This document shows positions 16,001-38,222 of a stretch of 64,000 nucleotides of DNA, in pieces. The DNA comes from a virus. Positions within the stretch are counted from its first letter, which is position 1; each line of letters opens with the position of its first letter. Under the pieces are notes generated by a model. That model was not told where the DNA came from. It was given only the letters and a program-made list of their open reading frames with translations, and did no database searches. The stretch is from IMG/VR virus record IMGVR_UViG_3300044811_000050; one strand, written 5' to 3'. A program made the position numbers and the translations under genes.

Positions 16001-16833
16001 GGGAGTCGGCCTCGGATGCCATCCTGGCCGGTCAGCCCTACACCGGCTGGGAAGACTTCCTGGAGCGCAAGACCAGCAAGTGCAACTCCGGGCACGTGCA
16101 GCTGCTGGCCCAGATCGGCGCGTTCGACTCGCTGGTACCCAACCGCCGGTGGCTGCTGAAGCTGCTGGAGATCGACAAGATCGCCGGCTCGGACCGGTGC
16201 CAGCACAAGACGAACGAGCCGGTACTGATCACCGGGCAGCTGTCGGTGGGCGAACCACCGGAGCCGGAGACCCAGCTGCTGCCGTGCGCCTACGACTGGC
16301 CCAGCGAGCCGCGCGAGCCGAGCCGGCAGGCCGGCCGGTTCAAGAAGGCCAAGCCGCTGCCCAAGAAGTGCTTCCGGGGCTGCCGGCAGTTCACCCCAAC
16401 CGCGCCGCCCACCTCGGAGGAGGTGGCGCCCTTCACCGACGAGGACATCCGTCGGATCGAGATCGACACACTCGGAGTTTTCCTGTCCTCCACCCCGTTC
16501 GACCGGATCCCCGAGGAGGACCGGGCGGCGTGCTCCACGGCGGTGGAGGTGCTCTCCGCTGAGCCCGGGGAGTACATCGTGCCGGCCCTGATCCGCACCG
16601 TGCGGCGCACCAAGGACCGCCACGACCGGGACATGGCGTTCGTCAAGCTGGCCACCGAGCGTGGCGAGCTGGAGGCCGTGGTGTTCAGCGGTGAATACGC
16701 CCGCTACCACAAGATGCTGACCGCCGGTCGCCTGGTGTTCGCCGCCGTGAAGAAGACCTACCGGGGCTGCAATCTCACCCTGCTGGAGGACCTAGACACC
16801 TCCACCGCCAAGCAAGGAGAAGATCACCAATGA
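13051..16833 (+). CDS. dnaE: DNA polymerase III alpha subunit
   Basis: PHP motifs HLHTHSEYS, VTDHG, DSHY; GPGRGSGGGS; PDFDIDF; HPAGVI; VKFDLL; YSFNRAH; C-terminal OB fold. Confidence 0.97.
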   Translation: MSYRLIEQRPDQHETPAEVGGRTYPVPSIVEDDDGLRLLLTRNLWVPVDLWTWASASGAVALINVERMLYVLASDFAEHHTENPKMRGLVLAENHWHPYRPGMTYLEMAGVQHTDRQDAALAAQGLAEEDLEDLGEFVHLHTHSEYSPLDGVTGLDDMMKIIVDDGQRAIAVTDHGNVAAHPALQLAADKAGVRPIFGMEANFVDDRTVKGAEVRGAYWHLVLWAMNDTGLRNLWAMSTEGYGEEAFYARPRIDWDTLERHAEGVMVSTACERGPVAQPFLDGNEERALANLGRLQQIFGDRLYVEIHTNGRAETRRANEWLVKISEDRNLPMVAVVDSHYGRACDQHTHRVWLSVQTNDDVSDDNGLFGGGHDYHLMTAQEVREALSYLPGPVVAEAMHNTVRVARRCTAKIEPQVHQPVYSKPTDEWPDPVAHDVDRLWAMVMDRWADRVPTNRDQDAYLARVDREMTLLVKKGFCGYYLMEADLVNWAKDHGILVGPGRGSGGGSLIAFITRITEIDPVEHELLFERFLTEGRNSPPDFDIDFPSSKKSELFDYVAERWGAENMAIVGTHLRLKSKGILNDISRALKSTLPEDYYVDFRKIAEIVSEAEAGTAGLGMSWEDLWIQHGDQLDPYREKYPEVFRYADELHGKLKTFGTHPAGVIISTEGSIVDSLPLRRGAEGGPMVCQFDMEALDRLGYVKFDLLNLRTLDTLQMCVDLIKETTGEWVDPYGWRHDEQYADPQIFDEISAGWTLGIFQIETQSGTRLTRRFQPQTVAELADVITLVRPGPMRSGLTETYFRRRNGEEEVNVPDPRLEPVLVKTNGCMLYQEDIMRICMELAGYDSNEADEVRKILGKKKVDKVAAAGSLFETRAVENGTDPMVAHLLWEQMAEFAKYSFNRAHAFAYAILGMWTAWFKFHYPIQFLCAALSTVKEERIAEFVEEARRMGYSIQPPDINESKAGFTASAMAVRYGFLSIKGIGESASDAILAGQPYTGWEDFLERKTSKCNSGHVQLLAQIGAFDSLVPNRRWLLKLLEIDKIAGSDRCQHKTNEPVLITGQLSVGEPPEPETQLLPCAYDWPSEPREPSRQAGRFKKAKPLPKKCFRGCRQFTPTAPPTSEEVAPFTDEDIRRIEIDTLGVFLSSTPFDRIPEEDRAACSTAVEVLSAEPGEYIVPALIRTVRRTKDRHDRDMAFVKLATERGELEAVVFSGEYARYHKMLTAGRLVFAAVKKTYRGCNLTLLEDLDTSTAKQGEDHQ

Positions 16834-17879
16834 CCGCCAACAAGGCCGCCATCCGGGCGTTCGAGCAGAAGTTCGCCAAGCGCTTCGGCGAGCACACCCT
16901 GGTCCGCAACCGCACCCGCCAGGTGGTGAGCACCGGCTCGCTGCTGCTCGACCATCGCCTGGGCGTGGGCGGGCTGGTGGTGGGCCGCTGCTACGAGAGC
17001 TGGGGCGCGCCCAGCATCGGCAAGACCACCATGAACCTGCTGATGATCGCCCAGCAGCAGCGCACCTTCCCGGACCGGATGATCGGCTGGGTCGACGTGG
17101 AGCGCAGCTTCGACGAGACCTGGGCCAGGGCCCACGGGGTGGACATCAACCGGCTCTGGCTGGCCGAGCCGGACACCGCAGAGGAGGTGTCCGACCAGGT
17201 GCGGGACTTCCTGGACTCGGGGCTGTGCAGCTACGTCTGTGTCGATTCGATCGGTGCGCTGATCTCCCAGAAGGAGATCGAGAAGGATGCCGCCGATCAT
17301 GTGGTCGGCACCGTGGCGAAGATCGTCACTCGGATGATCCGGATGGCTTCGCCGGCCGCCAGCCGCAACAACGCGACCTTCCATGTGATCAACCAGGTGC
17401 GGGCCAACATCAGCGCCTACGGCCCGGACACTTCGCCCGGCGGTGGCTTCGCTCTCCAACACGGCACCACCGCGCAGATGCACTACAAGCCGACCGGCGA
17501 GTCCCCGCCGGTGATCGGCGCGGGCAAGGAACGCCAGGTGGTCGGCAAGGTGATCAACATCCTGGTGGCCAAGAACAAGGTCGCCCCACCGAACCGTTCG
17601 GCCATGATCACCCTGACCAACCAGCCGACCGCCGAGTTCGGTCCGATCGGGATCGACCGAGCGTCCGAGGCGTTCCAGCTCGCCGACCAGCTCAGCCTCT
17701 GGAACGAGCGCAAGAGCAGCTACTACACGCTGCTGGACGGCAGCCGGCACAACGGCCAAGACGCCGTGTGCACCTACCTGCGTGGTCACCCGCAACTGAT
17801 CGACGACATCCGCGAGCGAGCCCTGGCCACCGTGGCCGACACGGTGATTACCGACGAGCTGAAGGAGGGCACGGCATGA
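16830..17879 (+). CDS. recA: RecA-like recombinase
   Basis: STGSLLLD, GAPSIGKTT, VDVE, VDSIGAL, INQVR, PGGGFAL, KNKVAPP. Confidence 0.95.
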   Translation: MTANKAAIRAFEQKFAKRFGEHTLVRNRTRQVVSTGSLLLDHRLGVGGLVVGRCYESWGAPSIGKTTMNLLMIAQQQRTFPDRMIGWVDVERSFDETWARAHGVDINRLWLAEPDTAEEVSDQVRDFLDSGLCSYVCVDSIGALISQKEIEKDAADHVVGTVAKIVTRMIRMASPAASRNNATFHVINQVRANISAYGPDTSPGGGFALQHGTTAQMHYKPTGESPPVIGAGKERQVVGKVINILVAKNKVAPPNRSAMITLTNQPTAEFGPIGIDRASEAFQLADQLSLWNERKSSYYTLLDGSRHNGQDAVCTYLRGHPQLIDDIRERALATVADTVITDELKEGTA

Positions 17880-18310: not shown

Positions 18311-18683
18311 GGACCCCACCACCCGGGATCTCTCGGACAAGCACGCCGACTACATCGCCGATCTGTTCGGCGCGCCGGTGCAGCGTGGCTCGGGCAACCA
18401 GCCCAACCGGCCCACCGACAACCGGATGCGGATCGGTCGGCACACCCCGATCGCCTTCGCCTTCGAGGGCAAGGCCACCCGCAACCGTTCGCTGTCGGTC
18501 TCGTTGGCCGACTGGCGGAAGGTGTGCGAGCAGGCCCACGGGCTGCGCCCGGCGATGGCCTACCGGTTCTACCGGCCGGACAACCTACTCGTCCCCGAGG
18601 CCGACCTGATCGCGGTCAAGGCTGACGACTTCGCCGAGGTCCTGGAAGGGGCCAACCTCTACGCGGAGATGAGGTTCCGGTGA
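18303..18683 (+). CDS. PD-(D/E)xK nuclease, Holliday junction resolvase-like
   Basis: QRGSGN..D..FEGKAT..S.SV motif. Confidence 0.7.
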   Translation: MAKDPTTRDLSDKHADYIADLFGAPVQRGSGNQPNRPTDNRMRIGRHTPIAFAFEGKATRNRSLSVSLADWRKVCEQAHGLRPAMAYRFYRPDNLLVPEADLIAVKADDFAEVLEGANLYAEMRFR

Positions 18684-19435
18684 CCGCGATCCGGGACAGC
18701 TTCAAGGCCACCTTGCGGGCCATCCACGACGACAAGGTGCTCACCCCGATCACCCACGCGGTACTGCTCGATCCCAAGTTCAAGGGCTTCACCGTCGATG
18801 TGGAGGCCTGGACACCCCGGCCCTACGACGGGATGTTCCACCCGAGCACGCACGCCGAGTGGACCACCTTGCAGCTCTACTTCTACCTGACCCAGCCCAA
18901 CCTGCTGGAGGTCGAGCAGATGGGGCTGACCTCGGTGCTGGCCATCACCCAGGGCAAGTTCTGGCACAGCTTCCTGCAACTGCTCTGGCTGGCCCACGGG
19001 GTGCTCACTCAGGACGAGGTGCCGCTGCGGGACGAGCTGCATAACCGCATCGGGCACATGGACGGCAAACTGACCGACGGCGACGGGCTGGAAATCAAGA
19101 CGATCAACGACTTCAAGCTGCCCAAGATCTTCGACGCGGACACCCTGCGGGTGCTCAAGCCCGGCTACTACGCGCAGACCCAGGACTACCTGGACATGGC
19201 CGGGCTCACCGCGATGCGCTACTTCATGATCTCCACCAGCTACCCGTACCCGACCAGCGAGTTCGTGGTGCCCGCCGACCCGCCGTTCCAGGCCGCGCAA
19301 CGGGCCAAGTACCGCGCGGCCATCGACGCGGCGGCGGGCACTCGGGCCCTGCCGCAGCCTTGCTGCGCGCTGAAGTCGGCCCAGGCCCGGAGCTGCCCCG
19401 TTCGGGGCGCGTGTGACATCGGGAGGGCCTCGTGA
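18680..19435 (+). CDS. Cas4/RecB-like PD-(D/E)xK exonuclease
   Basis: HPS, GKFWH, GHMDG, LEIKT, QTQDY, C-terminal Cys cluster. Confidence 0.8.
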   Translation: MTAIRDSFKATLRAIHDDKVLTPITHAVLLDPKFKGFTVDVEAWTPRPYDGMFHPSTHAEWTTLQLYFYLTQPNLLEVEQMGLTSVLAITQGKFWHSFLQLLWLAHGVLTQDEVPLRDELHNRIGHMDGKLTDGDGLEIKTINDFKLPKIFDADTLRVLKPGYYAQTQDYLDMAGLTAMRYFMISTSYPYPTSEFVVPADPPFQAAQRAKYRAAIDAAAGTRALPQPCCALKSAQARSCPVRGACDIGRAS

Positions 19436-20058
19436 AGACCCTGGATGACTTCGCCCCCGGTGCCGCGCCGACCCGTAGGCGGGCCAAGGCCAAGCCGGAG
19501 TGGCGCCCGCCGACGTTGGCCGACCTGTTCGTCTGCCGGGTGCTGGCATTTGACCCGTCGTTGAGCAGCACCGGCTTCGTGGACATGGAGTTCACCGGCA
19601 CCGAGCTGTTCGTGCACCACGGGGAGACGTTCACCGGCCAGATCCAGCCAAGCCTGACTGGCTGGGCAAAGGACTTCCATGCCGCTGAGGACCTGCGCCG
19701 GCAGTTCTATGACCGGTTGTCCCGCTACCAGGGGGTGGATGTGTCCGTGGTGCACGAGGCGCCCCCGTTGGGCGGCGGCAAGCTGGCTTCCCCCGAGTCG
19801 GCGATCCAGGCTTCGCTGATGCTGCGGGTGGCGGCCCACGATCTGGGGATGGCCGTGTTGCCGATGGTGCGCACCCAGGACCACAAGCGCCTCACGGTGA
19901 ACCAGGCGAACGCGAAGAAGCAGGACTACCACCGGCTGCTCAAGCCGCTCCTGGAGGAGCTGAGCCCCGGCTGCCTGTCGATCATTACCAACGAACACCA
20001 GCGGGACGCGGCCGGGGTCGGGCTTGCCGTCATGCTCAGAGGGAGGGTGGACCGGTGA
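19432..20058 (+). CDS. RuvC-like resolvase (RNase H fold)
   Basis: VLAFDPSLSSTGF, VVHEAP, NAKKQD, NEHQRDA. Confidence 0.75.
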   Translation: MKTLDDFAPGAAPTRRRAKAKPEWRPPTLADLFVCRVLAFDPSLSSTGFVDMEFTGTELFVHHGETFTGQIQPSLTGWAKDFHAAEDLRRQFYDRLSRYQGVDVSVVHEAPPLGGGKLASPESAIQASLMLRVAAHDLGMAVLPMVRTQDHKRLTVNQANAKKQDYHRLLKPLLEELSPGCLSIITNEHQRDAAGVGLAVMLRGRVDR

Positions 20059-20732
20059 ACGTGCGGGCCAGCGGCAAGACCGCTGATGAGGAGGCGCTCG
20101 ACGAGATCCGCAAGGACGTCGACAAGCCAGCCGAGACCGAACTGCCCGAGGAGCGCGAGCGCAGGTTCCGGTTTCCCGGCTTCTCCCGGATGCGCACCGA
20201 CTGGTACGGCGAGGACGCCATGACGATGACCAGGGTGCACACCACCGTGGACAACGTCATCAATGATCAGTTCAAGGACCTGCTGGCCATCCGCCAGGAG
20301 CTGTACGACCTGGTGCGCCAGCCGGAGATGTTCCAGGGCGCGCCGCGCCGGGACGTCTACGGCTGGATCGTCTGGGCGCGCGACGAGGACGGCAACTACC
20401 AGGAGGACTGGAGTCGTCTCGGCCACAAGGAGCAGGAACGGTTCCTGTTCTTGATCACTACCCGGCTGTTCGAGTGGAAGGAGCGCGAAGACAGGCTGTG
20501 GGCCGAGTCGATGATGGCCAAGACGCAATGGGAGGAGGCATTCTCCACCGGCTGGCAGGCCACCGAGGGGGCTCGCCCCACCGAGGGCGACAAGACCGCC
20601 AATGGGCGCTTGACCAGCCAGGAAGAGCGCTACTTCGCCATCTTCCAGACCTACCTATCCCGCCGAGGGGAATCCCTCGTGGAGGGGATGAAAATGTTGG
20701 CCCAAAGGATAAAAGACGTGCACACGGCATGA
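20055..20732 (+). CDS. Hypothetical helical phage protein
   Basis: Coupled ORF; last 11 aa are duplicated at the end of the next gene. Confidence 0.75.
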   Translation: MNVRASGKTADEEALDEIRKDVDKPAETELPEERERRFRFPGFSRMRTDWYGEDAMTMTRVHTTVDNVINDQFKDLLAIRQELYDLVRQPEMFQGAPRRDVYGWIVWARDEDGNYQEDWSRLGHKEQERFLFLITTRLFEWKEREDRLWAESMMAKTQWEEAFSTGWQATEGARPTEGDKTANGRLTSQEERYFAIFQTYLSRRGESLVEGMKMLAQRIKDVHTA

Positions 20733-21292
20733 TCAGGAAGCCTCCCCACCCTTTGATCAACGAGGTCCGTGACGGAAAGATCATCTGCGTTCGCTGCGAG
20801 GAGTGGAAGCTACCGGAGGAGTTCTCCGCATCTCCCAGGATGAAGCGAGGATTGCACTCCTGGTGCACGAGCTGCCAGACGGGGTCTCAGCAGACCAGGG
20901 TGGCGGACCCGGTGGTGCGCGAGAACATCAACTCTCGTCGGCGGGAGACCTACGATGCTGAGATGCGCCGCGCCTACCGCGAGGAGCGCTACGAGACGAT
21001 CCGGCTGATCGAGCGTCGGTATCACCTGAAGAGCAAGTACGGGATGACGCCGGAAGAGTATGACTTGATGGTGGCTGAACAGGAGGGCCGCTGTCGTATC
21101 TGCAAAGACGAGGTCGACCTGCTTTACGTCGACCATTGTCACACCACCCTAGTTCGGCGTGGTGGGCTCTGCGACGGCTGCAACTTCGGCCTGGGGCACT
21201 TCAAGGACGATCCTGCTCGGCTGCGCGCGGCAGCCGATTACTTGGAGGAGTTCCAGTTGGCTCAGCGCATCAAGGATGTGCACACCGCGTAA
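20729..21292 (+). CDS. Endonuclease VII-family homing endonuclease
   Basis: CxxC..CxxC, KYGMTPEEYDLMVAEQEGRCRIC, VDHCH, RGGLCDGCNFGLGHFKDDP. Confidence 0.9.
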   Translation: MIRKPPHPLINEVRDGKIICVRCEEWKLPEEFSASPRMKRGLHSWCTSCQTGSQQTRVADPVVRENINSRRRETYDAEMRRAYREERYETIRLIERRYHLKSKYGMTPEEYDLMVAEQEGRCRICKDEVDLLYVDHCHTTLVRRGGLCDGCNFGLGHFKDDPARLRAAADYLEEFQLAQRIKDVHTA

Positions 21293-21585
21293 CCCTTACC
21301 ATAGTGTCGAATCGTTATCTAAGAGGGGGCCCGCCTTGCCGGGGTGACCACCTCATGTAATCGTGACCTCTTAGAGCCGGGAATGTGCTCGCCCCACCTA
21401 CTGGGGTTTCGGACCTACGGCCAGGGAACCGGGTGTGCATGGTCTGAGGTGATTGACACCATTCCCCTCTGGCGACCCCGAGCCGTCCTGTTGACGCCGG
21501 TCGCTCACGGTTCTCTCCGCTCCCCGTTGCGGATCCCCCGCTCGATCGTTGGACCTCCCATGCTCCCCCGCATCTTCGCTGGAGC

Positions 21586-22323
21586 GTGCGGGTGACCGCC
21601 GTTCCGGCCAGCGATCGGATCTCGGAACTCCGAGACCTGTTCCGGTACCTGTCCGAGTTTCGGGCCTGCCACGAGCTGACCGGCCTGGAAGACATCACCA
21701 CCCCGTACGGCAACACCTGGTCGTTGTGGGACCTGGAGTACCTCTACCGGGCCGCCTGCGAGCGGCTCACCATGCGCCAGCAGCAGGCCATCACGCTGTG
21801 CCTGATCCACGGCATCAAGGAGTCCGACGCCGCCGAGCTGATGGGTGTCTCCCGGTCCAACCCGGTGATGATGTACGCCTCGCTGGGCATCCAGCGGCTG
21901 CTCGACATGATCGACTATGGCGAGCTGGACCGCTTCAACAAGCCCCGGCTGCGACCCGAGGACGCCAGTCGCCGCCGCGAGATAATGATCAAGGAACTGG
22001 CGCAGATCATCACGTCCAAGATCATTGAGATCAACGGCTGCTGGCTGTTCCCCAACCGGTTCTCCCGCCCGCCCAGGGTGCTGCTGCGCGCCCCGCAGAC
22101 CAGCACCGGCTACATCCTGGTCTCCCCGATGCAGATCCTCTGGCAGGACCAGATCGGTCCGGTACCCCCGGGCTGCCGGGTCGAGCACCAGATCGCCATC
22201 CCGGCGGTCTCCATCGCGTGCGTGAACCCCATCCACGGTGAGCTGATCATGTCTGCCCAGCGCAAGGCCTGGCTCCAGTCGCTCGCCAAGCAGTACATCC
22301 GATCAAGAGAGGTGTCGGCATGA
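21586..22323 (+). CDS. Sigma-70 region-4-like DNA-binding protein fused to a degenerate HNH domain
   Basis: LTMRQQQAITLCLIHGIKESDAAELMGVS HTH; C-terminal NGCWLF..GPVPPG..EH..CVNPIH. Confidence 0.7.
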   Translation: MRVTAVPASDRISELRDLFRYLSEFRACHELTGLEDITTPYGNTWSLWDLEYLYRAACERLTMRQQQAITLCLIHGIKESDAAELMGVSRSNPVMMYASLGIQRLLDMIDYGELDRFNKPRLRPEDASRRREIMIKELAQIITSKIIEINGCWLFPNRFSRPPRVLLRAPQTSTGYILVSPMQILWQDQIGPVPPGCRVEHQIAIPAVSIACVNPIHGELIMSAQRKAWLQSLAKQYIRSREVSA

Positions 22324-37757: not shown

Positions 37758-38222
37758 GTGTCAGCAGGATCAGAGGCAGTAGAGCGGTTCCGAGCCAGAC
37801 GGCGCGCTGAAGCCAAGGCCGTGCTCGGGGGTCGATGTCAGGGTTGCGAGACTCAGGAGGATCTGGAGTTTCATCACGTCGACCCTGCAACGAAGCTGTT
37901 CTCGATTAGTTCGGGCCTCCAGAAGTCCAGGGAGGTCTTCTTCGCGGAGGTGGCGAAGTGCCAACTCCTGTGTACCGACTGCCATGCCGAGGAGACCCGG
38001 AATGGCTACCGCCTGACGTGGGCGGTCGTGGACGAGATCCGATCCCTGGTCGGTCTCACGCAGGTAGAGATTGGTCGCCGGTACTGCCTACACCAGACAA
38101 CGGTGGGTCAGATCCTGAGCGGCCGTAGATGGAATGACCGGCATAGGCGAGCCAGCCCGACTGCTGATCGGGTCATCTGGGAAACTGGATGTGTAGGTTC
38201 AACTCCTACTCATTCCGCGTAG
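37758..38222 (+). CDS. HNH homing endonuclease with C-terminal HTH; ORF reads through tRNA-Ser
   Basis: CQGCETQEDLEFHHVDP..KCQLLCTDCH; TQVEIGRRYCLHQTTVGQILSGRRW. Confidence 0.85.
   Translation: MSAGSEAVERFRARRRAEAKAVLGGRCQGCETQEDLEFHHVDPATKLFSISSGLQKSREVFFAEVAKCQLLCTDCHAEETRNGYRLTWAVVDEIRSLVGLTQVEIGRRYCLHQTTVGQILSGRRWNDRHRRASPTADRVIWETGCVGSTPTHSA
38131..38217 (+). tRNA. tRNA-Ser(GCT), atypical, overlapping HNH ORF
   Basis: GGAATGA/TCATTCC; GCCCGA-CTGCTGA-TCGGGT; variable arm ATCTGG-GAAA-CTGGAT; G73. Confidence 0.82.

Follow-up and report, generated by a model that had tools for sequence, protein, structure and literature searches.

The window (the whole stretch of 64,000 nucleotides of viral DNA analysed here, IMG/VR record IMGVR_UViG_3300044811_000050) contained on its plus strand two overlapping open reading frames (ORFs) ending in the same peptide, LAQRIKDVHTA. 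The first (20055–20732) encodes a 225 aa protein matching phrog_2769, the product of a conserved actinophage gene called the host gene below. The second (20729–21292) encodes a 187 aa nuclease. The two frames overlap by the four bases ATGA (20729–20732), the start codon of the nuclease combining the final A of the Ala codon GCA with the TG of the TGA stop. The upstream copy of the shared tail, U, occupies positions 20697–20729, followed by the TGA at 20730–20732; its 11 recoded codons form the functional end of the host gene. The downstream copy, D (21257–21289, followed by the TAA at 21290–21292), provides the last 11 codons and the stop of the nuclease.

The host gene closes a recombination module with a RecA-like gene (16830–17879), a Cas4-like exonuclease gene (18680–19435) and a RuvC-like resolvase candidate (19432–20058). 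To the right of D, the intergenic segment 21293–21585 precedes a sigma-region-4-like gene and is colinear with the DNA that follows the host gene in nuclease-free alleles. In this segment, conserved blocks extended over nine relatives (such as those around CTTGC, ATGTAATCGTG, CTACNGGGG and GCCAGGGA), and a predicted helix showed little covariation. An Rfam scan of positions 21200–21650, covering the segment and the final 93 bases of the nuclease frame, returned no family. The segment is probably a regulatory element.

U and D differed at nine bases, affecting 8 of the 11 codons, and all the changes were silent. When nine random substitutions were simulated in the 33 bases of the window sequence, the peptide was kept in 0 of 200,000 trials (at most 1 in 200,000 simulations for silent-only differences arising by chance). 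Codon rarity was expressed as a fraction of the synonymous family, with 47 genes of the window as a reference. The codons CAA (0.076), AGG (0.057), ATA (0.017), AAA (0.072) and GCA (0.029) of U were rare, and their counterparts in D were common: CAG (0.92), CGC (0.37), ATC (0.93), AAG (0.93) and GCG (0.32). The GC content at third codon positions (GC3) of the host gene fell from 0.91 to 0.64 over the final 11 codons. The original prediction, made from the letters of this DNA, had described the shared ending, the eight silently altered codons and a contrast between rare upstream and genome-typical downstream codons. The coordinates and translations agreed with the first of these statements, a recount with the second. 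The third held for U, whereas D was not wholly typical, with the uncommon codons GCT (0.07) and GAT (0.15) in place of the common GCC and GAC of U. An assembly artefact was rejected as the source of the duplication: the same layout was obtained from JGI and Logan data assembled independently, and two assemblies carried the proteins of the window itself.

Elsewhere in the window, 14 tRNA genes were located between 36533 and 38770, among them Lys(ttt), Gln(ttg) and Leu(caa), which read codons of the recoded tail that are rare or end in A. A tRNA-Ser(gct) gene was present at 38131–38218.

The host family comprised 123 homologues; the 120 metagenomic homologues listed were nearly all 218–240 aa long. 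In an alignment of the 22 closest homologues, the motif QR[ILV]KDVH near the C-terminus was almost invariant and most proteins ended in KDVHTA, no other stretch of the host protein being as conserved as the tail. The near-invariance of this motif across the family indicates that the tail is the host gene's own end. Queried by megablast, 50,697 phage records gave no match to the locus, known phages had homologues of the host protein at only 24–29% identity, and a scan of viral contigs returned distant relatives only.

The Nuclease

The endonuclease VII (EndoVII) identity proposed from the sequence was borne out by both profile collections. The protein matched Pfam PF02945 (Endonuclease_7) over residues 99–173 (E = 8.4e-21, 74 bits against a cut-off of 23.6) and phrog_2633, endonuclease VII, over residues 13–175 (E = 1.8e-37). 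The span of the second match supports the long form starting at the ATG at 20729, rather than the shorter form of the gene caller. An N-terminal CxxC...CxxC zinc ribbon is followed by the EndoVII catalytic domain (21023–21247 by Pfam coordinates, with the motifs CRIC, DHCH, RR and CDGC-N) and then by the host tail. The motif CxxC / DHxH / R / CxxC-N defines the F-CphI (DHHRN) family of homing endonucleases (PMC6083498). All of these residues were present in the translation, the equivalent Arg being judged by eye. By the published definition, a C-terminal motif behind a separate N-terminal part is the layout of the endonuclease clade and not of the resolvase clade. Unrelated EndoVII homologues end just past the region corresponding to RLRAAADYLE, about ten residues earlier, which indicates that the 11 tail residues are an add-on.

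The host ORF stops before the nuclease body and the nuclease is a separate ORF, an arrangement that differs from embedding in an intron or an intein. The nuclease ORF was intact in four alleles and pairwise dN/dS values ranged from 0.16 to 0.48, showing that it is under purifying selection.

Comparison of Filled and Empty Alleles

The fused cassette was found in three lineages: the window and contigs L019 and L020, whose nuclease proteins (P0122 and P0123) also end in the host tail. In both contigs, the order was a host gene ending in a recoded tail, the nuclease with a GTG start that overlaps the TGA of the host gene, a tail made of common codons, the intergenic segment and the sigma-region-4-like gene. 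All three U copies have the Gln codon CAA, the Ile codon ATA and a TGA stop overlapping the nuclease start; CAA and ATA are the only codon changes that the three recoded tails share. In ten other contigs (L001–L003, L021–L023, L027–L029 and L034) the host gene was joined straight to the intergenic region, with no nuclease.

One pair consisted of L020 (filled) and L021 (empty). Their flanks differed by one mismatch in 1528 bases on the left and two on the right, a total of 3 in 2372. The tail of L021 was equal to D of L020 at all but one base and showed 10 silent mismatches in 33 bases with U of L020, so that the divergence of U from the empty allele was more than 200-fold above that of the flanks. 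The differences included the Ser codon, TCT in U and AGC in L021, which single silent steps cannot interconvert; U was thus imported and not mutated in place. A similar situation was observed in the second lineage, in which the flanks of the empty contigs L027, L028 and L029 were about 99.9% identical to those of L019. The tail of these three contigs was exactly D of L019, and U of L019 departed from it by 8 silent changes spread over 12 codons. For the lineage of the window itself, the closest nuclease-free relative was L034 (9 mismatches in 213 bases of the left flank, 92.6% identity in the right flank), which shares with the window a lineage-specific Lys-Met right before the tail. Its tail showed 5 mismatches in 36 bases with D and 10 in 36 with U.

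These natural sequences provided a test of the original prediction, in which nuclease-free alleles were expected to carry the downstream codons. The expectation was borne out by L021, one base off, and by the identical tails of L027–L029; in the window lineage the empty allele was nearer to D, and the match was partial. The filled and empty pairs likewise supported the proposed insertion of the nuclease close to the 3' end of the host gene, where it is fused to the original tail and brings a recoded replacement. The allele alignments show the cassette to be present or absent among otherwise near-identical phages, U coming or going with the nuclease. The mobile unit, as delimited by these alignments, is the recoded tail U (20697–20732, its 5' end) together with the nuclease body up to position 21256, and D appears as the displaced resident tail, the original end of the host gene.

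The junction between the host-gene body and the original tail was found only in nuclease-free alleles and was missing from the recoded nuclease-bearing alleles. In the empty allele, the body up to the position equivalent to 20696 would be joined straight to D, and the segment 20685–20710 of the window may thus be regarded as a remnant of the target region. The target site said to be pinpointed by the duplication was bracketed around the junction of body and tail, to within this region rather than to the cut itself. A palindromic target within the wild-type tail was considered and rejected, the palindrome not being preserved in the L021 target. A sharp recombination boundary at the site was not supported by the comparison of the window with L022, with 79% identity to the left, 87% to the right and no clean break.

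A fourth nuclease-bearing allele, L024 (region L024:2231–2850, on the same contig as L030), had an unrecoded upstream tail, identical to its D. The two tail copies formed a perfect 32-base direct repeat, and there was no ATG or GTG overlap. Across the flanks and the catalytic half of the nuclease, L024 and L019 were 99.9% identical. The N-terminal part of the nuclease gene of L024, about 200 bases, was GC3-rich and had diverged as between lineages (pS 0.47, pN 0.27). The block swapped between the two alleles corresponds to U plus the zinc ribbon, indicating that U and the 5' portion of this gene move together. L024 also indicates that the recoding is not obligatory, unless its nuclease copy is silent or of another specificity, either of which may be the case.

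Some features of U were observed in empty alleles. L034 (214–249) carries the very rare Ile codon ATA, as do all U copies. L001 (5127–5162) and L022 (687–722), the window's next-closest relatives, have tails rich in A and T at third positions, with Val for Ile, and share AGG, AAA and TGA with U. Over their final 20 codons GC3 was 0.45 and 0.55, respectively, against 0.93 in the remaining gene. The split between a U spelling in filled alleles and a D spelling in empty ones is thus not clean. L001 and L022 were not retained as a contradiction of the polarity, the closer allele L034 sitting nearer to D. These partly recoded empty tails may represent resistance alleles or the traces of a lost cassette.

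Age and Dynamics of the Association

Among the window, L019 and L020, the dN of the nuclease was 0.17–0.25, compared to 0.25–0.30 for the host-gene body. The divergence of the nuclease being about equal to that of the host gene, the association between the two must be old, and a recent transfer of the cassette between the three lineages was rejected on the same ground. The values would fit a long vertical association with losses as well as repeated homing. In the tree of host proteins, the fused alleles fell within one clade of 12 (support 100/100), interspersed with empty alleles. Identical host proteins were found in filled and empty alleles, L020 and L021 on the one hand, L019 and L024 and the three contigs L027–L029 on the other, which indicates that gain or loss of the cassette is still ongoing within lineages. 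The empty alleles may never have been invaded or may have lost the cassette. The site is a long-standing home of the EndoVII-type nuclease family.

In three distant relatives (L011:3114–3557, L015:464–907 and L013:2220–2672), an EndoVII gene with no fused tail was located directly after the host gene. Their host proteins were only 41–47% identical to that of the window, and the host tails had a reduced GC3.

Discussion

Architecture, polarity and mobility taken jointly, we consider with good confidence that the locus holds a free-standing homing endonuclease cassette of the EndoVII type, inserted 11 codons before the stop of the host gene. We propose the following model, built on the comparison of alleles. 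In a mixed infection, the enzyme would cut the junction between body and original tail in the empty allele. The target would have to span this junction, since D by itself also occurs in the donor, and the body by itself in both alleles. The left end of the break would then pair with the host-gene body of the donor, and the right end with D (21257–21292 with its stop, the likely right-hand homology arm) and the intergenic region. Repair would copy U and the nuclease into the empty allele, and the host protein would be kept whole, U encoding the same peptide. The donor would be spared by its own enzyme through the different spelling of U, with CAA and ATA as the changes present in all three recoded tails. 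The nuclease would probably be translated by coupling to the host gene via the ATGA or GTGA overlap, provided only by U. No promoter-like or terminator-like site was found between the host gene and the nuclease or around the cassette.

Immunity of the donor is, by a small margin of preference, what we take to be the main reason for the recoding, judging from the alleles. The nearest competing explanation, compatible with homing and in our opinion rather unlikely, is that U was recoded mainly for expression of the nuclease, through the overlap of stop and start and an unstructured A-rich initiation region. Only the U copies end in GCA or GCG followed by TGA, giving ATGA or GTGA. Folding predicted for the 64 bases around the start was weak in the recoded alleles, at -9.3, -10.2 and -14.4 kcal/mol, and less stable than in shuffled sequences (means of -12.0, -12.7 and -16.0 kcal/mol); the same region of L024, which lacks an ATG or GTG start, gave -23.5 kcal/mol. 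This comparison was made on natural alleles, three recoded against a single unrecoded one, and the contrast therefore depends on L024. However, the shared CAA and ATA changes sit 15–24 bases upstream of the start, and a role in expression does not explain the U-like silent changes of the nuclease-free L034, L001 and L022. Moreover, a wild-type junction, once restored, would be open to cutting by the phage's own enzyme unless altered. From the folding predictions, the recoding may also serve expression of the nuclease in addition to immunity.

More tentatively, U and the N-terminal zinc ribbon could be exchanged as a single module determining specificity as well as immunity, as part of a running arms race. 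This is suggested by the block exchanged whole between the otherwise 99.9% identical L019 and L024. The same conjecture, which we rank well below the homing cassette itself, would have nuclease-free phages such as L034, L001 and L022 escaping by single silent changes at key codons. If it were true, a selfish nuclease, and not translation, would shape the choice of synonyms in the final 11 codons of an ordinary phage gene.

The displaced tail might instead be kept on the nuclease as a docking motif, the peptide QRIKDVHTA bringing the enzyme to the partner or the site of the host protein. The peptide is the host protein's most conserved stretch, and it was in frame in all four nucleases in spite of a 9-base deletion in L019 and L024. 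On the other hand, the DNA of D was identical or nearly so to the local empty alleles, and renewal by homing or a recent origin would account for its conservation; in addition, the EndoVII genes found at the same site in the distant L011, L013 and L015 do without the tail. We consider docking improbable.

Less probable still is the opposite polarity, with the upstream copy as the resident end and a nuclease that brought a copy with typical codons at its own 3' end. Polarity is unreadable in L024 owing to its perfect direct repeat, and the rare-codon tails of L001 and L022, with their AGG, AAA and TGA, would speak for this possibility. Against it, the near-isogenic empty alleles of two lineages are spelled like D, to which L034 is also nearer, the excess of divergence of U over the flanks exceeds 200-fold, and U moves with the N-terminus of the nuclease. 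Finally, a Holliday-junction resolvase or other housekeeping nuclease, with the tail left over from a tandem duplication of unrelated origin and subsequent drift, has the name of the Pfam domain in its favour and is very improbable: phages whose host proteins are identical may have the gene or lack it, the zinc ribbon and C-terminal motif make the architecture that of the endonuclease clade, the RuvC-like candidate two genes upstream means that the nuclease need not be the phage's resolvase, and 10 differences in 33 bases beside 3 in 2372 are impossible by drift in place.

The homing cassette can be compared to several known systems. The closest are the hybrid mitochondrial genes of fungi with mobile ORFs (mORFs), described in atp6 of Allomyces macrogynus, in atp6, atp9, cox2 and nad3 of Glomus, in atp9 of Rhizopus and in cox2 of Mortierella (PMC3630166). 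In these genes, as here, an endonuclease ORF near the 3' end comes with an in-frame replacement C-terminus, the native C-terminus is stranded downstream and matches element-free relatives, and the inserted and native ends differ mostly silently (PMC3630166). The mORFs are found in an organelle and encode LAGLIDADG or GIY-YIG enzymes (PMC3630166), whereas the present cassette belongs to a phage and its nuclease is of the EndoVII type. In the cassette, unlike in mORFs, the replaced piece is only 11 codons long, the nuclease frame continues into the native end and terminates at the stop found there, and the nuclease start is built inside the replacement tail. The WHO elements of the FBA1 gene in the yeasts Torulaspora and Lachancea similarly replace the 3' end of a conserved gene at each integration, without splicing (PMC7282813). 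Their allele-specific cleavage was demonstrated experimentally, whereas that of the cassette is deduced; they are nuclear and eukaryotic, with an intein-derived LAGLIDADG enzyme to which a zinc finger is fused, and their old ends form clusters (PMC7282813). The two features common to mORFs and WHO elements were recognised at the present locus: U completes the host ORF in frame with the consensus tail of the family, and the native end downstream matches the element-free relatives in the L019 and L020 lineages, with a partial match in the window lineage.

With F-CphI and the DHHRN family, the likeness is at the level of motifs: a C-terminal EndoVII motif behind an N-terminal DNA-binding part, in a free-standing phage gene (PMC6083498). 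F-CphI targets the insertion site of a psbA intron and has no duplicated gene end (PMC6083498), unlike the cassette. The sporadic presence at one site among close relatives that characterises homing genes was also observed here.

Phage T4 protects its resident genes from its own free-standing homing enzymes by sequence polymorphism, and is not known to use a carried replacement end for this purpose. The Seg and Mob nuclease genes of T4, like that of the cassette, lie between or beside conserved genes, and their intronless homing proceeds by double-strand-break repair with co-conversion of the flanks (PMC2988022). The T4 mobE gene overlaps the stop of the upstream gene, as the cassette nuclease does, and translational coupling was proposed (PMC2988022). 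The text of this review of intronless homing contains none of the strings "duplicat", "polymorphi" and "immune" (PMC2988022). Free-standing homing nucleases are well established in phages (PMC2988022). A carried replacement end is absent from the same review and from a recent survey of phage nuclease genes (PMC2988022; PMC10448857). No report of a gene-end-replacing layout in a phage was found in a limited literature search.

Another parallel exists with synthetic homing drives and cleave-and-rescue drives, which cut a conserved essential sequence and carry a silently recoded, cleavage-immune copy of it. These recoded-rescue drives are engineered, RNA-guided and made for animals. The cassette described here would be a natural counterpart to their design, and would extend to phages, with another nuclease fold, the replacement of gene ends seen in fungal mitochondria and in yeast WHO elements. 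The target of an EndoVII-type homing enzyme would be defined naturally, almost to the base. The existence of empty, filled-recoded and filled-unrecoded alleles in near-identical phages makes the immunity model directly testable. Patches of rare codons at gene ends may mark such elements, which bears on the annotation of phages and on codon-usage anomalies.

A different kind of element may be present in the nuclease-free relative L002. At the position of the terminase (L002:6358–9034), the product is at least 1065 aa long, compared to 672 aa for its counterpart in the window, and shows a faint LAGLIDADG match. It is possible that the large terminase gene of L002 holds an intein or another homing element.
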